NCBI GenBank assembly: GCA_963716725.1
Contig: CAVQUB010000005.1
Span: forward strand, 1 to 64,000
Direction: 5' to 3'
DNA: 64,000 nt
Source: an uncultured delta proteobacterium
GTDB lineage: Bacteria; Myxococcota_A; Polyangia; Polyangiales; Polyangiaceae
Shown here one piece after another: positions 1-16,714 of this stretch (its first letter is position 1; each line of letters begins with the position of its first letter). Below the pieces are notes generated by a model. That model did not search any database. It had not been told where the DNA came from and saw only the letters and a list, made by a program, of their open reading frames with translations. The translations under genes and the position numbers were made by a program.

Positions 1-1094
1 AGGCTGCGGACGAGGCGGAAGCCGATGCCGCCGCCGCGATCGGAGCGGCCACCGCTGAAGTGCGCCGCGGCCCTGCACCTCGACGGCGGAGTGATCGGCC
101 CTCCGCCCCGGATGACGACTGCTTCAATGGCTGCCAGGATCTTGAGTTCGCCCCAGGGGTCGACCAGCGGCCCCGAGCCGTAGCCCAACCCTTTCATGAG
201 GTCGTTTGTCCACTCGTGTGCGTTCCCGAGCGAGTCGTAGAGTCCCCACGCACTCCTAGCCTTCAGCCCTCCAGGGTGCGTGACGGTGCCGGAGTTAGCA
301 CAGTGCCAGGCCGCTCCCAGAAGGACCGGGTCGCTGTTGCACGCGAGCGTGTCTCCGGGGAAAACCGTGATCGGTCCCGTGTAGAACGCCGTCGTGGTCC
401 CTGCCCGCGCGGCGTACTCCCACTCGGCCTCGCCGGGGAGGCGGTAGCCCTCGCACTCGTAGTAGGTGGGCGCGGTGGTCCCGATGCTGGTGCAGGCCAT
501 CCCCTCGCCAAGCTGGCCGGTGCAGCCCTCGAGCACGTAGCAGGGCTTCAGGCCCTCCTTCTGCGAAAGCAGGTTGGCAAACCCCGCCGCCTCGAACCAC
601 GTCACGTTGCCGACGGGGCAGGCGGGCTCGAGGCAGTCGCCGGAGTTGCCGGGTTTGATCGGAGCGGTGCTGGGATTCTTCAGACCAAGGGCGACCCAGT
701 CGGCCTGAGAGGTCTCCTTCTGCTGGATCAGGAACGGGTGGGTGAGCGTGACCTTCACCTGGTTCTCGGTGTTGGCGCCGCGGCCCCACTCGTCTTTCGG
801 CGAGCCCATCACGAAGCAGCCGGCTGGGATCCGGCACCAGCCGGCCTTGCAGTCCTCGGTGACTGGCGCGTGCTGGCAGTCGAAGCTCGGGCCGGCGTCC
901 GCGTCTGTTGCGGCGTCGGTGCCAGCCTCGGTGGCTGCGCCCCCGGTGCCCCCCGAGCCCGAGCTTCCGCCCGAGCTCGAGGTGGCGCCGGTGCCTGGTT
1001 GGCCGCCTGCGGGTGCTGCGGAGCTGCCGCCGCCGTCGCTGCACGAGCAGCCGGCGAGGCACGAGGCGATCAACCAGGCGAGGGGGATGCGCAT
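1..1094 (-). CDS. FGE/SUMF1 (formylglycine-generating enzyme fold) domain lipoprotein, array copy 3; 3' end lies outside the window
   Basis: ATG at 1094 (MRIPLAWLIASCLAGC, lipobox LAGC). Motifs FVMGS, RLPGEAEWEYAARAG, WGLYDSLGNAHEW, GFRLVRS. Paralogue of 3409-4587. Confidence 0.85.
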   Translation of the reverse strand, partial: MRIPLAWLIASCLAGCSCSDGGGSSAAPAGGQPGTGATSSSGGSSGSGGTGGAATEAGTDAATDADAGPSFDCQHAPVTEDCKAGWCRIPAGCFVMGSPKDEWGRGANTENQVKVTLTHPFLIQQKETSQADWVALGLKNPSTAPIKPGNSGDCLEPACPVGNVTWFEAAGFANLLSQKEGLKPCYVLEGCTGQLGEGMACTSIGTTAPTYYECEGYRLPGEAEWEYAARAGTTTAFYTGPITVFPGDTLACNSDPVLLGAAWHCANSGTVTHPGGLKARSAWGLYDSLGNAHEWTNDLMKGLGYGSGPLVDPWGELKILAAIEAVVIRGGGPITPPSRCRAAAHFSGGRSDRGGGIGFRLVRS

Positions 1095-1100
1095 GGGAGC

Positions 1101-1387
1101 TCAGTGGTTGACGCCGAAGTTGTCGCCTGACGAGACGATCCGAGTGTACCTCGCGTCGCTCAGCCCGTAGTACGCCTTCGCTCCGTTATCGAGCGCCGAC
1201 CACGAGAGGTTCTCGCTTTCGCACTCGGGTGGCGAGCAGGCCGTCAAGTACACCTGCCACAGGTTGGCCAGCGTGGTGCGCTGCGCAGTTGGCGCGCTGT
1301 TGATGTCATAGAGGAAGTTCATCCAGTCGTACTCCACGCCGCGGTTTGCCGTGAGGCACTGGTTTTCTAGCCACTTCACTGGGGTCT
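1101..1387 (-). pseudogene. Orphan 3' fragment (~95 codons) of the HEXXH lipoprotein gene at 4594-6612
   Basis: Translates TPVKWLENQCLTANRGVEYDWMNFLYDINSAP...FGVNH*, near-identical to the C-terminus of 4594-6612; no start codon of its own. Confidence 0.9.
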
Positions 1388-1620
1388 TTGGTTGCCCCCG
1401 CCTCGCAGGTGCTCGGCGCGTCGCGGGGCGCGCGGAGGGGCTCGGTGCGCGCGCTGGCGCCTGCGCGCCTGCGGTCCCCCGCCAAGGCCGTGCTCGGGCG
1501 CGCCGTCGAAGGGCGCGATGAGCGGCTGGCGCGCTCTGCGCGCGGCCGGGGGGGACTCTGTCGCTGGTGGCGCGACAGCTTGCCGGTGGCGGGAGCGTGC
1601 GCTGGGGCGATGGGCATCGG
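1388..1620. repeat. Structured intergenic element E1, copy b
   Basis: Near-identical to 3176-3408. Starts TTGGTTGCCCCC, has hairpin CGCC-TCGC-AGGT-GCTC-GGCG and a GTCCCCC...GGGGGAC stem. Confidence 0.8.
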
Positions 1621-2785
1621 TCAGTCGGTGGACGCGTCGGGTGGGGACGCGTCGGGGGTAGAAGCGTCGGGGGTGGTGAGCAGGCTGCGGACGAGGCGGA
1701 AGCCGCCGCCGGGGGCGTGTGAGGGCCTCGAGACCGCGAAGTGAGCGGCCGCGCGACAGCGCGACGAGAATGTGATCGGGCCACACCCACGAAGCACGAC
1801 GGCCTCGATCGTGTCCTTGATTCTCGATCTTGCCCCATGGGTCCACGAGCGGCTCAGTGCCGTAGCCGAGGCCCTTCATCGGGTCGTTGGTCCACTCGTA
1901 GATGTTGCCCAGGGTGTCGAAGAGGCCCCAGGGGTTCTTCTTCTTCAGGCCCCCCGGGTGCGTCAGGCCGCCGGTCAGGCCGCCCGAGTTGAAGCAGTAC
2001 CACTCGGCACTCGCGAGGTTGGGGTCTTCCGCGCACTCGCCGAGGTCGCTGAGCGTCTTGATCGGACCCGTGTAGAAGGCCGTCGTGGTCCCGGCACGGA
2101 CCGCGTACTCCCACTCGGCCTCGCCGGGGAGGCGGTAGCCCTCGCACTCGTAGTAGGTGGGCGCGGTGGTGCCGATCTTGGTGCAGGCCATGCCCTCGCC
2201 GAGCTGTCCGGTGCAACCCTCAAGCACGTAGCAGGGCTTCAGGCCTTCCTTCTGCGAGAGCAGGTTGGCAAACCCCGCCGCCTCGAACCATGTCACGTTG
2301 CCGACGGGGCAAGCGGGCTCGAGGCAGTCGCCCGCATGGGTCGGCTTTGGCGGAGGACCGCTCGGATTCTTCAGGCCGAGGGCGACCCAGTCGGCCTGAG
2401 AGGTCTCCTTCTGCTGGATCAGGAACGGGTGGGTGAGCGTGACCTTCACCTGATTCTCGGTGTTGGCGCCGCGGCCCCACTCGTCTTTCGGCGAGCCCAT
2501 CACGAAGCAGCCGGCTGGGATGCGGCACCAGCCGGACTTGCAGTCCTCGGTGACCGGCGCGTGCTCGCAGTCGAAGCTCGGGCCGGAATCGGCGTCCGCT
2601 GCTGCGTCGGTGCCGCTGTCCGCTGCCGACCCCCCCGCGCCGCCCGAGGCCGAGCTTCCGCCCGAGCTCGAGGTGGCGCCGGTGCCTGGTTGACCGCCCG
2701 CGGGCGGTGCGGAGCTGCCGCCGCCGTCGCTGCACGAGCAGCCGGCGAGGCACGAGGCGATCAACCAGGCGAGGGTGCTGCGCAT
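1621..2785 (-). pseudogene. FGE/SUMF1-domain lipoprotein, array copy 2, with a +1 frameshift near 1815-1830
   Basis: Same N-terminus as the other copies. The conserved end (IEAVVLRG...GFRLVRSLLTTPDAS...STD*) is in another frame ending at 1621; total length 1165 nt = 3n+1. Could be a sequencing error. Confidence 0.8.
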
Positions 2786-2793
2786 GGGGGGCT

Positions 2794-3175
2794 TCAGTGG
2801 TTGACGCCGAAGTTGTCGCCGCTCGCGACGAGCTTCAGGTAGCGTGGCTCAAACTGCCCGTAGTACGCCTTCGCCCCGTTATCGAGCGCCGACCACGAGA
2901 GGTTCTCGCTTTCGCACTCGGGTGGCGAGCAGGCCGTCAAGTACACCTGCCACAGGTTGGCCAGCGTGGTGCGCTGCGCAGTTGGCGCGCTGTTGATGTC
3001 ATAGAGGAAGTTCATCCAGTCGTACTCCACGCCGCGGTTCGCCGTGAGGCACTGGTTTTCTAGCCACTTCACTGGGGTCTTGCAGTTCACGGCGACCGGG
3101 GGTTGCTGCACGGCGTACGAGCTGTCCATGAACTCCTTGTAGTACCCGAAGGCGCAGTCGGACTGCTCTTGATGC
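2794..3175 (-). pseudogene. Longer orphan 3' fragment (~127 codons) of the HEXXH lipoprotein gene
   Basis: HQEQSDCAFGYYKEFMDSSY...FGVNH* matches the C-terminus of 4594-6612. Confidence 0.9.
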
Positions 3176-3408
3176 TTGGTTGCCCCCGCCTCGCAGGTGC
3201 TCGGCGCCGCGCGGTGCGCGCGGAAAGGCTCGGTGCACGCGCTGGCGCCTGCGCGCCTGCGGTCCCCCGCCAAGGCCGTGCTCGGGCGCGCCGTCGATGG
3301 GCCCGATGAGCGGCTCGCGCGCCCTGCGCGCGGCCGGGGGGGACTCTGGCGTTGGTGGCGCGAGACCTTGGCGGCGGCGGGGGCGTGCGCTGATGCAACG
3401 AGCATCGG
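3176..3408. repeat. Structured intergenic element E1, copy a
   Basis: Direct repeat of 1388-1620, abutting the truncation point of the gene fragment. Confidence 0.8.
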
Positions 3409-4587
3409 TCAGTCGGTGGACGCGTCGGGTGGCGCGGCGTCGGGGGACGCGTCGGGTGGGGACGCGTCGGGCGTCGAGGCGTCGGGCGTGGTGAGCAGGC
3501 TGCGGACGAGGCGGAAGCCGATGCCGCCGCCGCGATCGGAGCGGCCGCCGCTGAAGTGGCCAGCCGAGCGACACCGGGCACCACGGGAAATCGGTCCGCC
3601 GCCACGAAGAACGACTGCTTCGATGGGAGCCAGGATTTGCTGCTGACCCCACGGATCGACCAGAGGCGCTGTGCCGTAACCCAGTCCCTTCATCACGTCG
3701 TTGGTCCACTCGTGCGCGTTCCCGAGCACGTCGTGAAGGCCCCAAGCATTCTTCGTCTTCTCTCCCCCGGGGTGCGTGAGCGTACCGGAGTTCGCGCAGT
3801 ACCAAGCGGCCTTCACGAGGTTGGGATCGAGCTCGCAGTCCGAGGTCTGCGCCAGCTTGGTGATCGGACCCGTGTAGAAGGCCGTCGTGGTCCCTGCCCG
3901 CGCGGCGTATTCCCACTCGGCCTCGCCGGGCAGGCGGTACCCCTCGCACTCGTAGTAGGTGGGCGCGGTGGTGCCGATCTGGGTGCAGGCCATGCCCTCG
4001 CCGAGCTGTCCGGTGCAGCCCTCGAGCACGTAGCAGGGCTTCAGGCCCTCCTTCTGCGAGAGCAGGTTGGCAAACCCCGCCGCCTCGAACCACGTCACGT
4101 TGCCGACGGGGCAAGCGGGCTCGAGGCAGTCGCCGGAGTTGCCGGGTTTGATCGGAGCGGTGCTGGGATTCTTCAGGCCGAGGGCGACCCAGTCGGCCTG
4201 AGAGGTCTCCCTCTGCTGGATCAGGAACGGGTGGGTGAGCGCGACCTTCACCTGGTTCTCGTCGTTGGCGCCGCGGCCCCACTCGTCTTTCGGCGAGCCC
4301 ATCACGAAACAGCCGCCCGGGATGCGGCACCAGCCGGCCTTGCAGTCTTCGACCACCGGCGCGTGCTGACAGTCGAAGGTCGGGCCGGCGTCCGCGTCTG
4401 TTGCGGCGTCTGTGCCAGCCTCGGTGGCTGCGCCCCCGGTGCCCCCCGAGCCCGAGCTTCCGCCCGAGCTCGAGGTGGCGCCGGTGCCCGGTTGACCGCC
4501 TGAGGGCGCTGCAGAGCTGCCGCCGCCGTCGCTGCACGAGCAGCCGGCGAGGCACGAGGCGATCAACCAGGCGAGGGAGCTGCGCAT
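3409..4587 (-). CDS. FGE/SUMF1-domain lipoprotein, array copy 1
   Basis: 392 aa. Lipobox LAGC, Gly/Ser linker, FVMGS, PVGNVTWFEA, RLPGEAEWEYAARAG, WGLHDVLGNAHEW, RGG, GFRLVR, then a PDAS-repeat tail. Confidence 0.9.
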   Translation of the reverse strand: MRSSLAWLIASCLAGCSCSDGGGSSAAPSGGQPGTGATSSSGGSSGSGGTGGAATEAGTDAATDADAGPTFDCQHAPVVEDCKAGWCRIPGGCFVMGSPKDEWGRGANDENQVKVALTHPFLIQQRETSQADWVALGLKNPSTAPIKPGNSGDCLEPACPVGNVTWFEAAGFANLLSQKEGLKPCYVLEGCTGQLGEGMACTQIGTTAPTYYECEGYRLPGEAEWEYAARAGTTTAFYTGPITKLAQTSDCELDPNLVKAAWYCANSGTLTHPGGEKTKNAWGLHDVLGNAHEWTNDVMKGLGYGTAPLVDPWGQQQILAPIEAVVLRGGGPISRGARCRSAGHFSGGRSDRGGGIGFRLVRSLLTTPDASTPDASPPDASPDAAPPDASTD

Positions 4588-4593
4588 CGGGCC

Positions 4594-6612
4594 TCAGTGG
4601 TTGACGCCGAAGTCGCTGCCGGATTGGTGCAAGTGAGTGTAGCGAGCATCGGTGATGCCGTAGTACGCCTTCGCGCCATTATCGAGCGCCGACCACGAGA
4701 GGTTCTCGCTTTCGCACTCGGGTGGGGAGCAGGCCGTCAAGTACACCTGCCACAGGTTGCTCAGGCTGGTGCGCTGGGCTGTCGGTGCCGAGTTGATGTC
4801 ATACAAGAAGTTCATCCAGTCGTACTCCACGCCGCGGTTTGCGGTGAGGCACTGGTTCTCGAGCCACTTCACTGGGGTCTTGCAGTTCACGGCGACCGGG
4901 GGTTGCTGCACCACGTAAGAGCTGTCCATGAACTCCTTGTAGTATCCGAAGGCGCAGTCGGACTGCTCCTGATGATTGAAGATCCGGCTTGCGTACAGGT
5001 GCGCGAAACCCTCCGACGCACCCGCGCCGATGACCTCTTGCGATTGCAAGCAATGGTACTGGTTGGAAGAAGCCACGTGGTCGCAGCGGCAGAGCGACTG
5101 CGATGTCGGGTTGTCGTAGTCGGTCGTCAGGTTGCCCATGCCGAAGCCCTGCACCGTATGCCCGAACTCGTGGCCCACCACGAACTTGCTCCACGCGTCC
5201 GAGGGGTCCAAGGTGTTCTTTCGCCCGATGCAGATCGTGCTCTCTTTCAGCGCATGACTGGTCGACGCCCACGAGATGGGCGGCTCGCCGCCGCCCGACG
5301 AGCAATCGATGTTGTTCGAGCTCGGATCGCGCGTCGTCACTCGGATGTGCCCCTGGCTCAGCCCGTGATCGGGCATGTCGAACATTCTACCCCCGACCAC
5401 CAGGATGTTCGAGGCCACCGTGGTCAAGTAGACGCCGACCTGCACCGTGCTGGGCGCCGGGCCCGGGTGGACGTCGAAGAGCGTGCGGGCGTAGCCCACC
5501 ACCGGCGTGTTGGGCGGAGCGCCGCCATAGTCGAAGCTCTGCTCCGTCTCGACATCCATGGTCACCGCCCCGCTGTTGGTCTGAGTGCGCAGCTTGGACG
5601 CAAGAGTCAACCCGTAGGTGCCCGCCGGCAAATCCATGGTGGGCGTGCAGCCCGACGACCCAAGCCAGCCTGCCCACACCGCTTGACCGGTGTCGTAGTT
5701 CTCGAGCAGCGCTGCGGTGTACCGCGCCGGCTCCGCGTTGAAGCCGTTCATCCAGAAGTAGTCCTCGCCCACGCTGGCGTCGTAGAACTTCCACGTGTGG
5801 GACGCGCACACCTTCGTTGGGCCCGGTGGGCCGTCGAGGGGGGTGCCGGGCGCCGGCACACTGGCGGGCCACGCCTCCCAGAAGTCGACAGAGCCCCGGA
5901 TCTGGTAGCCCGCGCCGCCCACCGGCGGAAGCGAGGCGACGGGCACGAAGCTGCTGCCGTTCCAGACGTCACCTTGTGGCGTGAGCAGCGTCGCGTCCAG
6001 CGCCGCGAGCTGCATCCGCTCCTGGCGCGGGTCCCGCGGGTTCGACAGAGCGAAGCGCCGGGCGGTGGAGCCCCAGAGCGTGATCGTCGAGAGCCCCGGC
6101 TCGAACTCGTACGCCAGGCGCGACGTGGTGAGCTGGCGCTGAGCGCGCCCCTTGTAGAGCTGCAGGCTGGCGTGGACGCTGCTCACCGAGCCCACGGAGC
6201 GGATCGGGAGCCACGACAGGTCGATGGGCACCGTGAACGACGCGCGCGCGGGGACCACCAGGCTGCCCAGGAAGATGGACGCCTTTCGGGTTTCGAGGCC
6301 GAAGCTCTCGAGGGTGACCCCGACCGTGACGTCTTCGCCAGCGTTGTTGCTCATCACCAGACCGAAGCTCGCCGGCAGTGCCAGGCGTGAGTGGACGTCG
6401 AGGTCCACCCAGTCCGCCGAGACCCACGGCGCGCTGGCGCCGCCCTCGGGGATGTACACGCCGTTGACTCGCTGGCTGTTGGTCGAGACGGGTGCCTCTT
6501 CGTGACGGCCACAGCCTTCCAGGGCACCCAGCGCCGCCAGCGAGCAGAGCCACACCGCGATTCGTCCGCGGCGGCGGCGTTCGATTTTCTTCCGTGCAAG
6601 GTTCGTCTCCAT
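4594..6612 (-). CDS. Secreted lipoprotein, putative zinc metalloprotease
   Basis: 672 aa. Lipobox LEGC, VVGHEFGH (HEXXH) with downstream SEGFA glutamate (gluzincin-like), many Cys. Confidence 0.7.
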   Translation of the reverse strand: METNLARKKIERRRRGRIAVWLCSLAALGALEGCGRHEEAPVSTNSQRVNGVYIPEGGASAPWVSADWVDLDVHSRLALPASFGLVMSNNAGEDVTVGVTLESFGLETRKASIFLGSLVVPARASFTVPIDLSWLPIRSVGSVSSVHASLQLYKGRAQRQLTTSRLAYEFEPGLSTITLWGSTARRFALSNPRDPRQERMQLAALDATLLTPQGDVWNGSSFVPVASLPPVGGAGYQIRGSVDFWEAWPASVPAPGTPLDGPPGPTKVCASHTWKFYDASVGEDYFWMNGFNAEPARYTAALLENYDTGQAVWAGWLGSSGCTPTMDLPAGTYGLTLASKLRTQTNSGAVTMDVETEQSFDYGGAPPNTPVVGYARTLFDVHPGPAPSTVQVGVYLTTVASNILVVGGRMFDMPDHGLSQGHIRVTTRDPSSNNIDCSSGGGEPPISWASTSHALKESTICIGRKNTLDPSDAWSKFVVGHEFGHTVQGFGMGNLTTDYDNPTSQSLCRCDHVASSNQYHCLQSQEVIGAGASEGFAHLYASRIFNHQEQSDCAFGYYKEFMDSSYVVQQPPVAVNCKTPVKWLENQCLTANRGVEYDWMNFLYDINSAPTAQRTSLSNLWQVYLTACSPPECESENLSWSALDNGAKAYYGITDARYTHLHQSGSDFGVNH

Positions 6613-6694
6613 GCGTTGCCTCCGAGCGCACGTTGCGCGATCGGCGACGCTTCACGCAAGCAACTCTGCGATGGCATCCGCGTGGCGAGCGTCG

Positions 6695-6803
6695 AAATGA
6701 AACGCGCGTTTCATTTTGGGAGACACGCGGCACGCAGCTTCGCGCGCTTGCACCACTCCGCTCGCAACGCGCGTTGCATCGGTCGCATGACACGTGTCAT
6801 GCG
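6695..6803. promoter_or_regulatory. Cluster of three perfect palindromes in a divergent promoter region
   Basis: AAATGAAACGCGCGTTTCATTT (6695-6716), GCAACGCGCGTTGC (6764-6777), CGCATGACACGTGTCATGCG (6784-6803). Confidence 0.55.
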
Positions 6804-6864
6804 CCTCGGTATGCTCCGGCCCGTGAAGCAATCGCAGTTCGGGTCGGGAGCGCGCGTGCTTCGC

Positions 6865-7584
6865 ATGCCGCTCGTCGTGGTCGAGGCGCGCGATGTCGAG
6901 GCGCTCGCACTCGAGCAGATCCACGCGGCAGACGGTCGCGCGCTGGGCAAGCCCTTGATCTGGTTTCAGCCCGCCGGGCAGAGCGCCAGCGACAGCGCCG
7001 AGGCGGTGCTGCTCGCCGACGGAAGCGACGGGCGCTGGGGCGCAGTGCGGGCCGCGGAGCTCGCGCAGAGCGGGTTTTTCGGCCTGATCGTCGTGGCTGC
7101 CCACGCCGCGGCCAAGAGCGTGGTGGTGGATGGATTTTGCGGGGGCGCTCACTTGTGGTTGTCGCTGCCCCTCGATCCGCAGGTCTTTCCGGTCCAGGCA
7201 GCGAGCCTGATCCGCCGCCTGAGCGGTGCTTCCGCGTCCGAAGAGATCGAGGTGCAGCTCGACCCAGAGCCGCGCGTGGTGCGGTTCGGCGATCGACCCG
7301 TGAAGCTGACGCCACAGGGCTACGCGCTTCTGCTCTTGTTGCTCCAGCGCCGCGGCGCGTGGGTCACGGCAGAGGTCATCGCCAGGGAGCTGTCCCCCGC
7401 CGAGGCTCCTGCCGAAGCAGAGCGCGTCCGCCTGTGGGTGCTGCGCCTGCGCGCGGCGCTGGGCGAGCTGGCGTGGATCCTCGAGAGCCGCGAGGGCTGG
7501 GGCTTCCGGGTGAACCTCCGCAAGGACTCTACCGCGGCTCGACGCCTGCGCCCCCACGGCCGCTACCGGCACCGCCCACAGTGA
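6865..7584 (+). CDS. OmpR/PhoB-type winged-helix regulator with a degenerate receiver domain
   Basis: C-terminal VKLTPQGYALLLLL...V.LWVLRLRAALG...ILESREGWGFR; start codon uncertain. Confidence 0.7.
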   Translation: MPLVVVEARDVEALALEQIHAADGRALGKPLIWFQPAGQSASDSAEAVLLADGSDGRWGAVRAAELAQSGFFGLIVVAAHAAAKSVVVDGFCGGAHLWLSLPLDPQVFPVQAASLIRRLSGASASEEIEVQLDPEPRVVRFGDRPVKLTPQGYALLLLLLQRRGAWVTAEVIARELSPAEAPAEAERVRLWVLRLRAALGELAWILESREGWGFRVNLRKDSTAARRLRPHGRYRHRPQ

Positions 7585-7613
7585 TTCGACCTGCGACGGC
7601 GGAGCAACGCGTC

Positions 7614-9047
7614 TCAGTCTTCGCGCGGCGCGCCCTCGCCGCTCAGCAAGAGCCTGAAGACCCGCTCCGCGGACGACCGGTCGAACACCTGCTGCCCCCG
7701 GGGCTCTGCCCAGATCGTGAGCACGCGACGCCCGCGCTGGTCTGCGACCACGCGCTCGTCGGTGGCGTTGCGCTTGTGCGCGGCGCGAGCTGCGTCAACG
7801 GTGGGGAGCCACTCGATGCGCAGCGCGCCGAGCATGTCCGGGTGCACGAAGCTCACGTCCACCACGCCCGGACCAGCCGCGCGCTCTCGAAGGATCCGGA
7901 GCCCCGCGCTCGGCATCCGCAGGCGCACCCACGCCGGCGACCAGGTTGGATCCTGCGCGGCGAGCCCGGACCGCGCGGGAGCCCGAGCGGGGCGCGGCAG
8001 GACCAGAAATGCCGTGGCGAAAACCCCTGCGACGAGCAGCAGCGGCAGCGTGGCCAAGGCCGCCCAGAGCGCCGGCGCGCGGCGCCCACCGGCGCTCGGG
8101 CGCGCCATCACGCTCGTGACCGGCGCGAGCGACGGTGCGCCCGCGCGATCGGACGGGCAGGGCTCCCGCGACGGGCGCTGCTCGGTCACCTCCCAGGCGC
8201 CGGCGGGAGCAGGCGCCACGGCGGCGACGCGCTCGAGATTGGCGAGCATCTCCTCCGCGCTCTGGTAGCGCGCGCTCGCATCCTTCTCGATGGCCCGGCG
8301 CACCACGGGGTAGAGCGGGCTCTGCACCACCGCGTCGGGGAGCGCGTGGGGCTCGTCCGAGCAATGGGCGGTGAGCTGCTCCGTCGTGCTGCCCCCGATC
8401 AGCGGCGCACCGGCGAGCGCCGTCGCCATCACCATGCCGAGCGCGTAGAGATCGGTGGGCGGGCCCAGCCGACCGCCGAGGATCTGCTCGCGCGGCATGA
8501 ACCCGGGCGTGCCGACCAGCCAGCCGTGGGCAGTCAGGCTGCGCTCGGGCTGTTTGGCGATGCCGAAGTCCAAGAGCTTCACGACATCGTCCTCGCCCGC
8601 ATAGCGGCACAAGAAGACGTTCTGTGGTTTGACATCCCGATGCACGATGCCCAGAGCGTGGGCCTCCGAGAGCGCGTTGAGCAGGCAGCGCGCGACTCGC
8701 CGCGTCTCGTCGCCGGGCAGGTGCCCCACGCGGTGCACGCGCCGCCCCAAAGACTCGCCATCGAGCCACTCGAAGGCGATGAAGAGGTACCCCTGCGCCG
8801 CGACCCCCCAGTCGTAGACTCGCACCGTGTTGGGGTGCACCAGCCGCGACGACAGCTCGGCCTCGCGCCAGAAACGCGGGACGGTGTCGTCGCCGCCCTG
8901 CGTCACCTTCAGGGCGACCGGCCGATCGAGCTTCAGATCCCGGGCGCGGAACACCGAACCCTGCTCGCCACGCGAGATCAGCGCCTCGATCTGGTAGCGA
9001 TCGAACGCTGGGCCGAGCTTGTGCGGTGCGAATTCTCGGGGGGTCAT
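7614..9047 (-). CDS. Hanks-type Ser/Thr protein kinase with a transmembrane segment
   Basis: VALK, HRDVKPQN, DFG, GTPGFM and DLYALG motifs; hydrophobic helix in the C-terminal half. Confidence 0.9.
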   Translation of the reverse strand: MTPREFAPHKLGPAFDRYQIEALISRGEQGSVFRARDLKLDRPVALKVTQGGDDTVPRFWREAELSSRLVHPNTVRVYDWGVAAQGYLFIAFEWLDGESLGRRVHRVGHLPGDETRRVARCLLNALSEAHALGIVHRDVKPQNVFLCRYAGEDDVVKLLDFGIAKQPERSLTAHGWLVGTPGFMPREQILGGRLGPPTDLYALGMVMATALAGAPLIGGSTTEQLTAHCSDEPHALPDAVVQSPLYPVVRRAIEKDASARYQSAEEMLANLERVAAVAPAPAGAWEVTEQRPSREPCPSDRAGAPSLAPVTSVMARPSAGGRRAPALWAALATLPLLLVAGVFATAFLVLPRPARAPARSGLAAQDPTWSPAWVRLRMPSAGLRILRERAAGPGVVDVSFVHPDMLGALRIEWLPTVDAARAAHKRNATDERVVADQRGRRVLTIWAEPRGQQVFDRSSAERVFRLLLSGEGAPRED

Positions 9048-9845: not shown

Positions 9846-9873
9846 GTGAGCGTTGGACGATGGTCGGGGGGCC

Positions 9874-10128
9874 ATGTCGTCTCGGACGCAGTCCCACGCC
9901 AAAGAGCTCGAGCGCACCTACGGCGACGGCGAGTGCATCGTCGAAGAGGGGGACCACTCCCGGGACATGTTCGTGATCCAGACCGGACGGGTGCGCATCA
10001 GCAAGAAGGTCGGCGAGCGCCAGGTGGAGCTGGCGACCCTGGAGCGCGGCGACTTCTTCGGGGAGATGTCGCTGCTCGAATCACTGCCGCGCGACGCGAC
10101 GGCGCGCGCCGTGGGTGCCACGGAGCTG
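9874..10128 (+). pseudogene. Truncated cyclic-nucleotide-binding (Crp-like) domain gene, fused in frame to a transposase fragment
   Basis: EEGD...MFVIQTGRVRI...GDFFGEMSLL...PRDATARA cNMP motifs. Confidence 0.8.
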
Positions 10129-11308
10129 CCGCTCGTGCTCGACGGCGTGTACGTGCATCAGGACGACGACCCGAGCGCTCCGCTCGAGTTCCGCGAGCTC
10201 GACACGCCATCGCACGCCGACATCGCGGAGGTCGCGTCACGCACGGCGACACGCATCGAGAAGATCCTGCGCGCGCACGGACGGAGCCTCGACCCCGAGC
10301 TCGACGACGGCTCACCACCCGACCTCGCCCTCGACGAGCCCGGCCTCGCTGCCTGCTACGCCGCTGCGGCCCGGGGCATCTCGGTCAGCGGAGACCGCGC
10401 CGGCCAGCCGCCGCTCCGACTCATCGCGTCGCCGGAGCCACCCGCGCGCCCTCGCGCCGTCGACGCGACCGACCAGCCCATCGTCGACGCGACCGACCAG
10501 CCCATCGCCGAGGTCCGCGGCATCAACATCCACGCCGTGCAGGTCGTGGACGGCCGGGATCGCCGGAGAGTGGAGCGGCTCTGCAAGTACATTACACGCC
10601 CTCCCGTCGCGCAGGACCGCCTCGAGCGCCGCGCGGACGGCAAGCTCGAGCTCGGCTTCAAGCGGGCGTGGCGGGACGGCACGCGCGCGCTCGTGTTCGA
10701 GCCCGCGGACATCATCCCGCGTCTGGTCGCCGCGGTGCCGCCGCCACGATTCCATTTGCTCCGCTACTTCGGCGTCTTGTCGAGCCACTCTTCGCGGCGC
10801 CGGCTCGTCGTCCCGACGCCCACGCGCGACGCGACCGCGAACAAGCCCCCTCCCGCGCGCGGCGATCAGCTCGAGCTGCTCGGCGAGCGGGACGACGCGC
10901 CGGCGCCGCGCAACCGCTGGGCGTGGCTGCTCGCGCATGTCTTCGCCGCCGACGTCGAGACCTGCCCGCGCTGCTCGGGTCCGATGCGCTGGGCCGAGCT
11001 CGCCAAGACGCGCGCGGAGAGCACCCGCTTGCTCGCGGAGCATGGCCTCGGGCCGCGAGCGCCACCGGTCGAGCACGCGAAGGTGCGCGTGCCCGAGCAG
11101 TTGATGTTGGGGTTCGGGGAGGGGTGAGGCGTCGGTGAGCGCCTCGCCGAGGGCGGAGCTGTGTCCTGCGCCGGGCGCGACGCGGAGAAGCTCTGCCGAA
11201 CGGCGCCTTTCGGCCGCCCCGCAGGGGTTCGTGGGCAGCACTCGACCCGACCATCGACGCCGCGTACCCTTCGACTCGGTGGAATTTGGCAGTTCGATTG
11301 CCTTACGC
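10129..11308 (+). mobile_element. IS91/ISCR-family (HUH Y2-type) transposase 3' relic with an oriIS-like end
   Basis: LVLDGVY, ERLCKYITRPPVA..RL, LKR.WRDGT-like, RLVAAVPPPRFHLLRYFGVL, CPRC. End motif GCAGTTCGATTGCCTTACGC (11289-11308) resembles ISCR oriIS. 24-bp tandem duplication at ~10459-10506. Confidence 0.85.
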
Positions 11309-11524
11309 GCCGCTTGTCGTGTGGCCTTTCGTCATCGCGACGATCTCCGCGAAGTCGAGATCGAAGGTCAGCACCGCGCGACCCCCTGCAACGGCCTTCG
11401 CGAAGATATCGCCATTTGGAAGCCGATGGAGCCCCTGGTCACCGAGATGGATTACGTCGTCACCGCGGTCGCGAAGCCATTGGACGACCCGGTGGCTCAC
11501 GCCCATGTCCGCCAAGAAGCGCAC
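11303..11524 (-). pseudogene. DUF5615-type PIN-like toxin, 3'-truncated at the ISCR end
   Basis: MRFLADM..S....WLR..G.DV.H...L...D..IF......R.VLTFDLDF pattern; ends after 73 aa at the element junction. Confidence 0.7.
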
Positions 11525-12218: not shown

Positions 12219-12651
12219 CGCCCGTCCCGCCTCGCACCTGCTCGCGCCCCGCCGTGGGGGGCACTTGTAGGACCTACGGGCCCGTGCTTGCAGCCCGCGC
12301 CTCGCGGAGCGAACAGGAACCGTGCTGCGCGTCGCTCATGCGGTCCGCTGCGCCGGCAGGGGAAGGTGCGGGCCGGAAAATCGAAACGTCGACGAGCGCT
12401 GAGCATGCTCGTCGGCGCTGCGACCTGTGCTGTCGCAGGCCGCGGGCTGGGCGGCGGGGCGTGAAGGTCGAGCGATGGGCGGTGAATCAGAATGACACGA
12501 GCACGTGCTTGCACGACTGGCAGCTGTCGCCCGTCGTAGGGGCGCAGCGGGCGCGCCTCGACGTGTGTGATGTCGGGGTCAGCGTGTGCGTGTGCGCTGA
12601 TTCGTACCTTGACGACCCCGACCTCCTTCGTGTTGATTCAGCTCTGGGGCG

Positions 12652-15600
12652 TTGGCTGCGCGGGAGGTGGATGATGGCGCAAGGACGAGACGGCTGGGGG
12701 ACTGCCATCGCATTGAAGTTGGCACGCGGCTCGCAGGGGGGGCACGCCGCGCGGCGATAGCGCTGCTCGCCCTGCTGGCCTTCGGCGCACCCACGGCGTG
12801 CTCATCGCCTGACGGGCCGATGGAGAGTCCGCGCTCGAACACAGTCTCCGAGGTGATCTGGGGCAACGCCAACCTGAAGAACTTCGAGAACGTGTCGAGC
12901 CTGGCCCACCAGAATTCGGCACGGCGGTCGGGCTGATGGCGAACCGATCCCAGCTGAACTCGACGGCCTTCAACTGTCCCGTGCCTCCGACGGCCACCGA
13001 TTGCACTTGGATCATGTCCACGACGCCATCGGGGCTCTGCGCGGGCGAGTTCTTCAGCTCGGAACGGGTGATGCCCGTGGCCTGCACGGCGTTCATGATC
13101 GGACCCGATCGATTCGCGACCGCCGCGCACTGCATGACCGATCTGGTGTTTCCATGGAACGGCTGGAATCAAGAATGCGCGGAGCGGTCGGTGGTGATGC
13201 GGTGGCGCACGAGCGGCTCGAGCTTTCCCGACGGAAACCCGAACATTTTTTCACGCCACATCTACTTCTGCGATGCGGTTCTCGATCACGGTCCGGTCGC
13301 GCTGCCCACGACCAGCGGGCTGCCCAACGATTGGGTGGTCTTCCGAGTGGATCGTCCGGTGAGCGGCGGCACCGGCACTGGCGGCCCGCTGACCGCGGCC
13401 CGCGAACCGCTGTTCCCAGCTAGTGCGCCGGTCGCGCCCTCGCAGAACAACCTGATTTGGACGCACAATTTTGGCCTTCCACTCAAGCTCGACAATCAGG
13501 TCAACATTGCGAGCGTCGGCCAGGTGCTGGTGAACGGCGGGGGACCCGGAACGTTCACCGTCGAGGCCGATCTGCTGCCTGGGTCCAGTGGCGCTCCGGT
13601 GCTGACGCCCTCCGGGGCGGCGCTCGGAATGGTCATCTCTGGGCCGAAAGAGGTGCTCGGCCCCGGTGGCTGCACGCAGGACTGTTTTCCAACCGGGCAA
13701 GGTGCGCCGACGTGCCCGGGCAGCGGCGACCATCGTTCGGTCGGCCTCGACCTGAAGCAGCTTCCGCGGAAATGGCTGCCCGTCGCCTATGACTACGACT
13801 TGGACGGGATCCGCGACGACTTCCTGGCGTTCTTCGAGGACCAAGGCACGCTGTGGATCAACATCTACATCGATGGTGCGTTCCTTGTGTCGTTCGACAC
13901 TCTGCTCCCCGTCTCACAGCAGCAGGCGGACAAGTTCTCGTTCGTTCCGCTGGGCGACTTCGACAACGACGGCGTTGAAGATTTCGTCGTGGTCGCTGGG
14001 GCGCAGGCCATCTTCTTCGATGTGAATCTGGGCGGCTCCGTCTTCCCCCTGCTCGTCGGGACCTACGTCGAGTACTCGACCGGGGACGCCGACAAGGACG
14101 GCTTCATCGATCTGGAGCTGATCAGAGAGGACGGGACGCGAGACTTGTACTTCGGTGGTGCGAACGGACCCGTCAACAAAGGCGTGCCGCTCTCGGGCTT
14201 CCCGTCGGCGGATGGCGATGATGGCCGGTTCGTGACGGTGACGGGGCAACCTTTCGCAACCGTACCCAATCAGCGCACTCGTTTTCTCATCGGCGTACCC
14301 GCCGGCCAAAGCGCCGTCACCGTTCAGGTCTTCGACGGTGACCAGACGCTTGGAAGCCTGTACGACACCGGCAACAACGCCGGCACCCGCACGTGCTACG
14401 AGCTCTACAGCTCCAAGGACAAGGCCACCCCCGAAACGCTGCTACCGGCCACGGTGGTCGAGGACGCTGCGCTGCCCGACGCGTCCTGGGGAAAGATATA
14501 CGCTGGACCGGTCTTCGGTACTGCGAGCGGAAGCGGGGCGCATTTCTACATTCTCGACGTGTACCTGACCCAGGCGGCCTGCGGGCAGCCCGTCATTCCG
14601 GTCACCGCCGGGCTCACCAACAGCTTCAAGGTGCGCGCTACGGGTCAAGTCAGCACGATCGCCAATGACTTCGCGTTCATCGCGCGCGATCTCGCCGGCC
14701 CCTTCGCCGTGGGTCCGCTCGCCGACACCGCGATGCTGGACACCAAGTACGACGGAGTATTTCGGTTCTTCGTGGACGTCGGGACCGCGTCCGTTTCGAT
14801 GACGCTCCGGGATGCCGACGCCGACATCCTGGTGGACGACGATCCTGCGGTCGTGGGTCAACGCGGGCCGCTGGATGTGAAGTCCAACGGCGTGGCCACC
14901 GGCGCCAGCGCAGAATCTTCGCTACGACGTGCGGAACCCCTCGGGGGCGGTCGTCCTCACCAACACGAACCCGTCGGGAAACAACGACGGGGTGACGGTC
15001 TTCGACGAGGAGCAGTTGAAGGTCACGGTCCAGGGTGTGCCTGGCGCGTGGGAATGGCGATGGCAGAACCTTCGCGTCCAGAACAACGTCCGCATTTGGG
15101 CCCCGGTGGGCTCTCCGGTCACATACGAGGTCTTCGGCCAGCCCACCCGGCGGCTCAGCCCGAGCGGAGCGGTCCCCGTCGATCAGTGGATCTCGGCTGA
15201 CGTGAGTTCGTTCTTGCCGATCACCGTTGGTGGCATTTCGGTGGCATCAGCATCGGGGGCAACGGCCATGCTCAGTGGCACCGCTCCCGAGCTTGGCGGC
15301 GCGAACGGCTCGCACGCGGCCGTGTGCCATCTGCCGCCAGGCAAGCAGGGGGCCAAAGCCAAGCTGCTCGTCGTCGGGGCTCCCGCACTGTCGGCGCATC
15401 TGGCCCACGGCGACACCATCGGCCCCGCGCGAGTGATGGCCGACCTCCACGCCGAGTTGTTGGCGGCGAAGCTCAACGTCATCGCGCGAGCTGCGGCCGG
15501 CGAAGACCTGGCGGGCGCGTTCGTGTATACGCGCGACAGCTCGGTCGCTGACGTCATTGCAGGCGCGGAAACTCTGCTCGTCGGCCAGCGCGCTTGCACA

Positions 15601-15765
15601 TGGAACGTAGCGGACTCAGCCCACGCGGCTGACCTCCTGGCTCTTCTGCGGGCCATCAACGCCGCGGAGGTCACGTTCTTCAAGACCACCGCGCCCGCAG
15701 CGCCGGCCGCGACCGGAAAGCAGTCCTCGAAGCCCCAGCCCACCCAACAGCTCCTCGGGCTCTGA
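12652..15765 (+). CDS. Large secreted trypsin-like serine protease, split by two frameshifts (~12908 and ~14920)
   Basis: Lipoprotein-like N-terminus; TAAHC...DWVVF...GSSGAP catalytic motifs; GDFDNDG/GDADKDG FG-GAP-like repeats; C-terminal VCHLPPG...AHLAHGD motif. Three consecutive ORFs join by single-base shifts; start uncertain. Confidence 0.65.
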
Positions 15766-15770
15766 CGGCG

Positions 15771-16400
15771 ATGAGCATCCGCGGTGCTTTCTCGGCCGCG
15801 ACGCGTAGCGTCTGCTTGGCCACGCTCGGCGCCGCGATGGCCGTGACGTGTCGTGCGCCCTCAGGTCAATCCCAAGGCGTTGCGACGCCTCGGGTCGAGC
15901 CCAGCAACCTCGGACTGCCGGAAGCGGGCGCCCGAGCGTCCGATGGGGGCGTCAATGACGCGACGATCGCTCCAGAGAGCCCCGAGGAAGTGCCAATCGA
16001 GCGCTTGATAGTGGAGGCAGCGGCCTACTTCGGACGGCGAGTCACCACCGCCGGTTGGGTGGTGTCGTGCGACGCACCGATCAGTTGCAAGATGATCAAG
16101 TGCGGGAGCTGCGGCTCATGCACGAGTCGTGCGGTCTTCGTGCCACCTGGCACCGTGGGGATGCCGCCCTGCGAACGTAACGAGAGTTCGCTCATCATCA
16201 TGGACCCACAGACGCTGAACGAGTTTTTGTGCCATGACTTCGACTGCCAAAACAACTGCGAACGGGTCTGTCCGTTCCCCAAGGAAACCCCCGTCCGCCT
16301 GACGGGGACGATCCAACGCGCCACCTCGGCCCAAATCGGAGCTGCTCATGAGCAGTTCGTATTCGTTCCGGATCCGCCGCCCAGAACGAGAGGCAACTGA
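15771..16400 (+). CDS. Cys-rich secreted hypothetical protein
   Basis: 209 aa with signal-like N-terminus; directly follows the protease gene; its 3' end is duplicated at 35336-35492. Confidence 0.6.
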   Translation: MSIRGAFSAATRSVCLATLGAAMAVTCRAPSGQSQGVATPRVEPSNLGLPEAGARASDGGVNDATIAPESPEEVPIERLIVEAAAYFGRRVTTAGWVVSCDAPISCKMIKCGSCGSCTSRAVFVPPGTVGMPPCERNESSLIIMDPQTLNEFLCHDFDCQNNCERVCPFPKETPVRLTGTIQRATSAQIGAAHEQFVFVPDPPPRTRGN

Positions 16401-16714
16401 CGTAGCGGGCGTGCCCGTGCGTGCGTGCAGCGTTTGCCGATGAGCGCGCAGTGGCGCTCATGGGGGAGGCTCGATGCGCAAACACCCCCCCCCGCCTCCG
16501 CGCTCCGAGCCCCGCGACTACTCCGAGCAACCGAGCCCAAGCGGTCCCGCCGTCAGCAAGTACTTCGGGCTAGGGCACGACTTCACGCACACGGGCAAAC
16601 TGCAACCCGCGCTGCCGCGTGGCACCACGTAGGTGCAGCCGCCGGCGCCGCAGCCGTGTTTGACGCCGGTGGAGGCGTCTTGGCCGAAGCCTTGTTTCGG
16701 AGCGGTCACGCAGA
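16244..16714. repeat. ~470-nt direct repeat of 35336-35805
   Basis: Holds the 3' end of 15771-16400, the intergenic region and a 197-nt 3' end of the C1 peptidase gene (16518-16714). Confidence 0.9.

Follow-up and report, generated by a model that had tools for sequence, protein, structure and literature searches.

A tandem array of FGE-fold lipoprotein genes and orphan protease 3' pieces beside a predicted thermolysin-like metalloprotease gene in an uncultured member of the Polyangiaceae

A 64,000-nucleotide stretch of DNA from an uncultured delta proteobacterium, a soil myxobacterium of the family Polyangiaceae, carries, at its left end, a gene for a predicted zinc metalloprotease followed by a tandem array of genes for lipoproteins with the fold of the formylglycine-generating enzyme (FGE). 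This stretch (the window) makes up the initial 64 kb of contig C5 in a draft genome (G000) of 7.9 Mb in 35 contigs, which is 84% complete with 3.9% contamination; the other C numbers used here (C1, C8, C10, C13 and C31) are contigs of the same genome, and L numbers denote related loci. Close relatives of the window proteins come from Polyangiaceae/Myxococcales metagenome bins. We found that the protease and the FGE-fold lipoprotein form a conserved gene pair that is an accessory module of Polyangiaceae, and that in this genus the FGE gene appears to have been amplified in tandem along with a 231-nt spacer, here called E1, and the final 95-127 protease codons. The system may represent a secreted protease with specific FGE-fold binder or inhibitor lipoproteins of an immunity-like kind, in an array built by unequal recombination. 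We put this reading forward tentatively, with a nearly even chance of its being right.

A second, paralogous locus lies well within the 472-kb contig C13 and encodes a protease 98% identical to that of the window together with five FGE copies. The C5 array is composed of the following features, given in window coordinates.

4594-6612, minus strand: protease coding sequence, a full-length open reading frame (ORF) of 672 aa with the motif HEFGH
3409-4587, minus strand: FGE1, 392 aa, with LAGC lipobox, Gly/Ser linker, folded domain at 70-368 and PDAS-repeat tail
3178-3408, minus strand: E1 spacer copy 1, 231 nt
2794-3177, minus strand: orphan 3' protease piece, codons 546-672 plus stop, in frame, tail QFEPRYLKLVA
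1621-2785, minus strand: FGE2, with a 'T-type' variable part, frameshifted
1390-1620, minus strand: E1 spacer copy 2
1101-1389, minus strand: orphan 3' protease piece, codons 578-672 plus stop, short form, tail LSDARYTRIVS
1-1094, minus strand: FGE3, 364 codons, open at the contig end and cut in the conserved GFRLVRS stretch
6613-7852, no strand: upstream flank common to the C13 locus, holding a divergent winged-helix (Trans_reg_C) regulator ORF

FGE1 directly follows the full protease gene, and FGE2 and FGE3 are each preceded by E1 and an orphan 3' piece. A first-pass annotation of this DNA had given the same gene order and coordinates and had put the units at 1.7-1.8 kb, which agrees with the start-to-start spacings of 1691 and 1802 nt. 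It had also expected the array to run on past the window edge. Position 1 of the window is, in fact, a contig end inside a repeat; the array is cut by the assembly and not by the choice of window, the leftward count of units is stopped by the contig break, and the C5 locus is to be taken as having at least three FGE copies. A 1-nt insertion near window position 1822 disrupts the reading frame of FGE2. The T-type variable part of this copy is unique relative to the C13 units and has an intact, 92% identical counterpart in metagenome contig L066, and the frame break is therefore private to this assembly. FGE3 combines sequence from C13 units 2 and 4/5, in mosaic form and at 97-100% identity, and may be either a true recombinant or a chimeric contig end. 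An Rfam scan of window positions 1-8000 gave nothing real (one chance match, E 0.42), and promoter and terminator scans of the locus gave no signal above the level of shuffled sequence.

At the C13 locus, the orphan pieces start at codons 578, 546, 585 and 578, and the fifth FGE copy is truncated at codon 245 by a repeat. Upstream homology between the C5 and C13 loci ends at window position 7852, with 98.5% identity over 6001-7852 and 97.2% over 7000-7852, and beyond this point the two flanks differ. In two other genomes of the genus, the contig ends within the first FGE copy or shortly after it, one small contig carries an FGE end, E1 and an orphan piece, and a metagenome yields the same array pieces. 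Because these other genomes and the metagenome hold the same pieces, several independent assemblies show the array. The observations bear on the possibility that the array, or its C5 end, is a mis-assembled repeat or a chimera of strains, as might be suspected from a window that starts at a contig end inside a repeat, from a last unit that is a mosaic of two C13 units, and from the quality of the draft genome. We consider such an artefact very improbable, given that the five-unit array is internal to C13, that the variable part of C5 FGE2 is present in no C13 unit yet occurs in an independent metagenome, that the C5 and C13 flanks diverge, and that contigs of two other assemblies break in the first FGE copy, one carrying an FGE end, E1 and an orphan piece.

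The protease has a signal peptide with a lipobox-like LEGC motif, an immunoglobulin (Ig)-like sandwich at aa 60-173 (Z 8.8) and a thermolysin-like catalytic domain at aa ~254-672. The HExxH motif lies at residues 481-485 and an invariant Glu534 lies 49 residues past it; H481, E482, H485 and E534, together with several cysteines, are invariant in an alignment of 51 sequences. From this pattern the protein is predicted to be a thermolysin-like gluzincin of clan MA(E), with zinc ligands provided by HExxH and Glu534. Searches at the family level returned no Pfam family at E<=0.01, no NCBIfam family at E<=1 and no sequence match in the PDB, and the Pfam profiles Peptidase_M4 and M36 did not match the protein. 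The only match in a profile search was a weak one between aa 63-127 and the Ig-like domain of YfhM (E 0.12), and the ESM Atlas gave unnamed clusters only, which pointed weakly (scores of 0.80-0.82) to M36/M4 and BSP. The family nevertheless has 846 representative relatives at E<=0.001.

The AlphaFold model (pLDDT 85.8, pTM 0.87) has its best fold match in aureolysin (VIA Z 13.7, 269 of 300 residues aligned, rmsd 4.6; Foldseek E 1e-6), and residues 254-672 align along the full length of aureolysin, thermolysin, pseudolysin and fungalysin (Z 11-13.7, 261-285 aligned residues). The C-terminal domain of VgrG2b (6H56) was not among the fold matches listed for the protease. The model suggests a complete thermolysin-like two-lobe fold belonging to an unnamed family. 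Long family members (877-1297 aa; P0022, P0023 and P0041 among others) carry N-terminal Kelch propellers in 13 of the 19 scanned, and one has a subtilase domain; the catalytic module is thus joined to different binding modules among relatives. None of the 19 gave a type VI secretion system (T6SS) domain match at E<=0.001.

The orphan pieces correspond to the helical lobe of the protease past the Glu helix. They lack both HExxH and Glu534 and therefore cannot be proteases. They are 88-89% identical to the C-terminal lobe of the full gene, and only about 11 residues of the last helix vary among them. The hypervariable stretch corresponds to the final protease helix, residues 656-667, within a block modelled at pLDDT 97-98. 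Tyr658, Ser664 and Gly665 are invariant, position 661 is hydrophobic, and positions 653, 654, 659, 660, 662 and 663 are variable. Judged by the helical period, the varying positions would form a single exposed face.

The partner proteins match Pfam PF03781 (FGE-sulfatase) in all three C5 copies, with bit scores of 105, 84 and 102 (cut-off 23.3) and E-values of 8e-30, 1e-23 and 8e-29 for FGE1, FGE2 and FGE3, respectively. Each is laid out as a LAGC lipobox, a disordered Gly/Ser linker of ~55 residues spanning aa 20-68, a domain at 70-368, and a disordered tail of PDAS repeats of varying length. When aligned with the Streptomyces coelicolor FGE (2q17), the LCHDSYC motif of the enzyme corresponds to ISRGARC, the first catalytic Cys being replaced, and neither catalytic Cys position is conserved in an alignment of 32 sequences of the family. 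The CxxxxC copper-binding pair of the formylglycine-generating enzyme is absent, and the copies are in all likelihood non-catalytic. The genome as a whole holds 63 FGE-sulfatase domain matches, which include other clusters of adjacent copies. One of these, at C31 956-7361, was considered as a related module and rejected, as it adjoins a Ser/Thr kinase gene and no protease relative.

The best match to the FGE copies is TvpA (2y3c), both by sequence (E 3.6e-18) and by fold (TM 0.75), and the FGE variable region aligns with the C-terminal part of TvpA, in keeping with an early suggestion that the fold accommodates a variable end. TvpA is a surface variable binding lipoprotein of Treponema denticola and the target of a diversity-generating retroelement (DGR). 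The kinship raises the possibility that the FGE variable region is likewise hypermutated from a template repeat. We rejected this explanation, to which we assign a negligible probability, on the reverse transcriptase evidence and the lack of an adenine-specific mismatch pattern in this 84%-complete genome. The assembly has only two RVT_1 matches, at C13 95334-95960 and C1 285103-285729, in frames of 555-578 aa, and a scan of the C13 reverse transcriptase, the only one so examined, gave a group II intron maturase domain. In no copy do A or T positions account for more than 27% of mismatches, there is no adenine bias, and the divergence includes indels and saturated synonymous sites.

The pattern of divergence among the units is sharply partitioned. 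Sliding-window identity across eight units is 90-97% except in two patches, which are the protease tail (about the last 11-12 protease codons; mean 73%) and the FGE C-terminal third (roughly codons 245-362; mean 65-74%). In the conserved N-terminal part of the FGE genes, synonymous divergence (dS) is 0.09-0.30 and the ratio of nonsynonymous divergence (dN) to it, dN/dS, is 0.02-0.32. In the variable part dS ranges from 0.85 to saturated, dN from 0.13 to 0.38 and dN/dS from 0.1 to 0.35, the exception being C5 FGE3 and C13 copy b, which are nearly identical. For the protease 3' end, ten sequences gave a ratio of nonsynonymous to synonymous differences (pN/pS) of 0.17 in the core (pS 0.33) and 0.59 in the tail (pS 0.71). 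Both patches thus carry old, saturated synonymous divergence under purifying selection, and positive selection was not detected.

Recombination among the units is pervasive. The four-gamete test was failed by 2424 of 4656 informative-site pairs, neighbouring sites were less incompatible than permuted ones in a PHI-type permutation (p=0.0005), and about three sub-blocks make up a mosaic within the FGE variable part. Between assemblies, a given tail or variable type occupies different positions in the array. These results came from the sliding-window, dN/dS and recombination checks that the first-pass annotation had proposed, and they agree with much of what it had described. Alignment confirmed its mosaic motifs (PSTAPIKPGNSG in copies 1 and 3, NTENQVKVTL in copies 2 and 3) and the varying number of PDAS repeats, and the divergence that it had noted in the FGE C-terminal third does extend to synonymous sites. 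Its suggestion that the variants form a bank gathered from different donors did not survive phylogenetic analysis, at least for donors outside the genus. Whether the tree is built from the variable part (support 0.91) or the conserved part (0.99), all nine genus copies (9/9) fall in one clade, and the FGE arrays of other genomes also group by genome. From these trees, exchange among strains of the genus is possible, and import from outside it was not seen.

The orphan pieces take part in this exchange. The full proteases of C5 and C13 differ at 15 residues, of which none lies before residue 506, 14 lie in the zone covered by the orphan pieces and 8 lie in 653-667. Several of the full-protease variants are common to orphan pieces in a mosaic pattern, which argues that orphan pieces exchange sequence with the live gene. 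Every orphan piece begins at codon 546 or 578/585 behind the same E1, and the short form equals the long form minus a 96-nt deletion. Since there is a single junction type behind the same E1, one founding junction appears to have been spread by unequal crossing-over. In the mechanism that we propose, a single illegitimate junction between the end of E1 and protease codon ~545 would have arisen once and then been propagated by unequal homologous recombination, and the 96-nt deletion would have given rise to the short orphan form. Frequent gene conversion would homogenise the units and would extend to exchange of orphan pieces with the full gene's 3' end. Homogenisation would spare two patches, the predicted exposed face of the last helix and the FGE C-terminal third, which would keep old allelic classes.

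The same data could be read as a recent and neutral tandem amplification, perhaps helped by IS91-type repeats, in which the variable patches mark a failure of gene conversion. A single junction type and the presence of pseudogenised members are compatible with such an origin, and mobile repeats are at hand: the C13 locus is bracketed by 2009-bp direct repeats, 100% identical, that contain a Y2_Tnp unit, and the C5 locus has a copy at a distance of 2.3 kb. The age of the variation is difficult to reconcile with it, as dS above 1 in the variable part combined with dN/dS of 0.1-0.35 indicates long-maintained functional alleles and not recent copies. The same variable types also occur in other assemblies (G001 and, at 92%, metagenome L066), and eight other loci have multi-copy FGE arrays. 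We regard neutral amplification as distinctly unlikely.

The E1 spacer is 230 or 231 nt long and occurs inside array units only. Eight copies from three assemblies have an almost unvarying core of ~115 nt, which is more conserved than the flanking coding sequence. Its predicted RNA fold has an energy of -138 kcal/mol versus -120.5 +/- 4.9 for shuffled sequences (z -3.6), and none of the 66 predicted pairs covary. Searches found no Rfam family for E1, no homologue elsewhere in the genome and none in the region upstream of the protease. The element may serve as a recombination anchor or a transcript element, or may merely be the most homogenised segment of the unit.

To place the module in a wider context, related loci were found with a 9-sequence alignment, which gave 46 public-genome loci, in 44 of which the protease was found on re-scan. 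An FGE gene lies directly downstream and on the same strand in 29 of these 44 Myxococcota loci, and in 28 of 32 among the higher-ranked rows (L018-L049). The earlier pairing of binding or immunity lipoproteins with a protease thus holds as a conserved association of the two genes. Tandem arrays with 2-5 FGE copies per one protease are present at eight loci elsewhere, for example with four copies in Labilithrix luteola and at loci of two, four and five copies in one complete chromosome assembled from a metagenome. No orphan protease pieces were found in those eight loci, each searched with its own protease end. Comparison with related genomes, which had been suggested at the outset, therefore shows that the pair and the FGE arrays recur and that orphan pieces do not recur in other genera. 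The protease and FGE are the only conserved genes among 18 loci; no further conserved neighbour was found in these, a kinase being present in 4 of 18 and the regulator within the genus only. The distribution of the module is patchy. It is found in two of six other genomes of the genus, the protease is present in 6 of 41 relatives overall, and the FGE subfamily is present in 11 of 41 at E<=1e-40. A divergent paralogous module on C10 (4276-7243; L015) has a protease relative of 28% identity, with a single FGE gene of 45% identity immediately behind it and no array.

The surroundings of the C5 locus show a number of additional features. The regulator ORF (Trans_reg_C) at window 6391-7584 on the plus strand is divergent from the protease and kept within the genus only. 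It is followed by a Ser/Thr protein kinase gene at 7614-9047 on the minus strand, the 3' end of which forms part of the C13 duplication. Window 10130-11311, 2.3 kb from the C5 locus, is taken up by a 1.18-kb repeat unit whose IS91-type Y2 transposase domain is partial. The unit follows, as an in-frame fusion, a cyclic-nucleotide-binding domain (ORF 9853-11127) and probably disrupts that gene. It recurs on C13 (110109-113649 and 126927-128935), where three units are found in tandem, and C8 has more copies; this repeat may have mediated the segmental duplication of the locus. Window 12524-16424 (~3.9 kb) is 95% identical to C1 275072-278981 and constitutes a further segmental duplication in the genome. 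The C1 duplicate lies a few kb from the putative group II intron reverse transcriptase at C1 285103-285729.

For the function of the module, a protease with specific binders fits best because the pair is conserved, one protease is accompanied by one to several FGE genes, both proteins bear export signals, the FGE fold is of a non-catalytic type, and there are two allelic patches. We envisage a two-gene module in which a lipid-anchored or secreted thermolysin-like zinc protease would be followed by a non-catalytic lipoprotein of FGE/C-type-lectin fold. The FGE lipoproteins would be specific binders of the protease, most likely inhibitor or immunity proteins. With the array, the cell would have a repertoire to counter the variant proteases that its relatives make. 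Tail variants would be stored in the orphan pieces, as a passive or usable reservoir. An inhibitor or immunity role is favoured because of published arrays of FGE-like immunity proteins, arrays of displaced 3' ends, and pairs of envelope gluzincins with immunity proteins, which are compared with the present system below.

Several observations weigh against this assignment. The protease shows no sign of being a toxin, as its long relatives have Kelch propellers and no delivery domains, and the variable patches are, overall, under purifying selection. A given FGE type does not always go with a given tail, as the same FGE variable type stands behind different tails (C5 FGE2 versus L066), and we have rejected a strict tail-to-FGE correspondence on these grounds. 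The arrangement of orphan C-termini with partner genes, which the first-pass annotation had likened to polymorphic toxin-immunity loci, does match the layout of a displacement array, with full genes and orphan pieces sharing variants in a mosaic way. Frame breaks are nonetheless present in two of the four C13 orphan pieces, which are two of six genome-wide. One FGE copy (C5 FGE2) is frame-broken as well, as expected for decaying by-products, and the orphan pieces do not form a conserved ORF with E1, whether of 230 or 231 nt. The arrays of other genera, which lack orphan pieces, indicate that the pieces are not needed for the module.

An alternative is that the FGE lipoproteins constitute a bank of lectin-like adaptors, binding glycans or proteins of prey or matrix and diversified by duplication, with the orphan pieces as scars of duplication boundaries. 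We judge this somewhat unlikely. Within the same alternative, and with a similar degree of doubt, the protease could be a working partner that processes or sheds the FGE proteins via their Gly/Ser linkers or is targeted by them. The closest fold is that of TvpA, itself a surface variable binding lipoprotein, the variation lies in the C-terminal region of the FGE fold, and a long disordered linker (aa 20-68) follows the lipobox. The relatives of the protease have Kelch binding domains, the frame-broken orphan pieces are suited to scars, and the 63 FGE-domain matches in the genome point to the fold as a general-purpose module there. Wood et al. (2019, PMC6899460) have proposed that a T6SS metallopeptidase cleaves lipoprotein linkers. 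The adaptor bank leaves unexplained why the last protease helix is hypervariable and well ordered, and why one protease is strictly adjacent to 1-5 FGE genes with no other conserved neighbour.

The protease-inhibitor reading can be extended to a more specific proposal, which we consider rather unlikely and offer as a speculation. The module would be a T6SS-independent, lipoprotein-borne, polymorphic protease/inhibitor system for discrimination of kin and competitors in Polyangiaceae, with specificity set by the exposed C-terminal helix of ~11 residues and by a TvpA-like variable face of the FGE domain. Units consisting of a tail, an FGE gene and E1 would work as switchable cassettes, entering the expressed gene by recombination at the nearly invariant E1 and the conserved flanks; this would be the germline equivalent of the diversification that DGRs bring to the same fold. 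If true, polymorphic loci of the effector/immunity style would extend to secreted lipoprotein proteases of predatory, social myxobacteria that do not rely on a type VI system. A function would be provided for a large unnamed family of metalloproteases (the 846 representative clusters) and for one branch of the expanded FGE-fold proteins of Myxococcota. The FGE/C-type-lectin fold would also be seen to be diversified, by paralog arrays and gene conversion, at the same end that is mutated by retroelements in TvpA. Apart from any function, the locus provides a clean natural case of concerted evolution with two protected allelic patches and with orphan pieces that exchange sequence with a live gene.

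The module combines features of several known systems. Like TvpA of T. denticola (2y3c), the FGE copies are lipoproteins with an FGE-type C-type-lectin fold and variability toward the C-terminal part; unlike TvpA, their variation is germline and lies between paralogous copies, and no DGR reverse transcriptase, template repeat or adenine pattern was found in the 84%-complete assembly. The protease resembles the M4/M36 proteases, for which protein inhibitors are known (e.g. aureolysin-IMPI, PDB 7skm), in its whole two-lobe fold and in its HExxH with a downstream Glu, and differs from them in an extra N-terminal Ig-like domain and a lipoprotein signal, with no propeptide of the FTP/PepSY type detected. 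Literature searches revealed no FGE-fold partner of a metalloprotease of the thermolysin-like clan, and none in myxobacteria.

Among bacterial competition systems, one close precedent is provided by the Tsi3 FGE-like immunity proteins, whose description also gives the earlier idea of FGE-like proteins as arrayed immunity proteins its T6SS precedent. As described by Lopez et al. (2021, bioRxiv 10.1101/2021.05.21.445229), these proteins bind their effector, lack the catalytic cysteines and are usually arrayed as non-identical copies, and the Tse3-like effectors have a function that is either unknown or predicted to be pore-forming. The likeness to Tse3-Tsi3 of Acinetobacter baumannii, as drawn from that published description, consists in genes of non-catalytic FGE fold present as adjacent non-identical copies beside one effector or protease gene. 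In the present system, by contrast, both proteins have their own signal peptide and lipobox, the partner is a thermolysin-like protease, and the genes lie on the same strand. A T6SS association of the Tsi3 type was not found: TssC (PF05943) gave no match in the 84%-complete genome, conservation is limited to two genes, and the long protease relatives scanned have no T6SS domain.

A second precedent is found in the envelope. VgrG2b, with its C-terminal domain, and Tpe1 represent envelope-acting gluzincins delivered by T6SS, with HEXXH and Glu, and are neutralised by PA0261/Tpi1, a disulfide-dependent envelope protein that is encoded just downstream and is a lipoprotein in some species (Wood et al. 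2019). Such pairs share with the present module an envelope gluzincin with a partner gene just downstream. They differ from it in being T6SS-delivered and in having an immunity gene that is described as a small ORF and not as one for an FGE-fold protein.

The layout of the locus is similar to that of C-terminal displacement arrays, in which displaced 3' ends of effectors are retained (Rhs, contact-dependent inhibition and Vibrio cholerae T6SS; Kirchberger et al. 2017, PMC5361080). In both cases a full gene is followed by partner genes that each have a displaced 3' end of the upstream gene, a conserved sequence would serve as recombination anchor, and orphan modules exchange with the expressed gene. 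Unlike the pieces of those arrays, the orphan pieces described here have no alternative toxin domain, and only ~11 residues vary, with the catalytic residues outside the piece. One junction (E1 to codon 546 or 578) points to unequal crossing-over and not to repeated illegitimate insertions, and the modules form one clade and are not imports from distant donors. Arrays of FGE-like binders and C-terminal displacement arrays are thus known kinds, and what is new here is their attachment to an undescribed thermolysin-like family.

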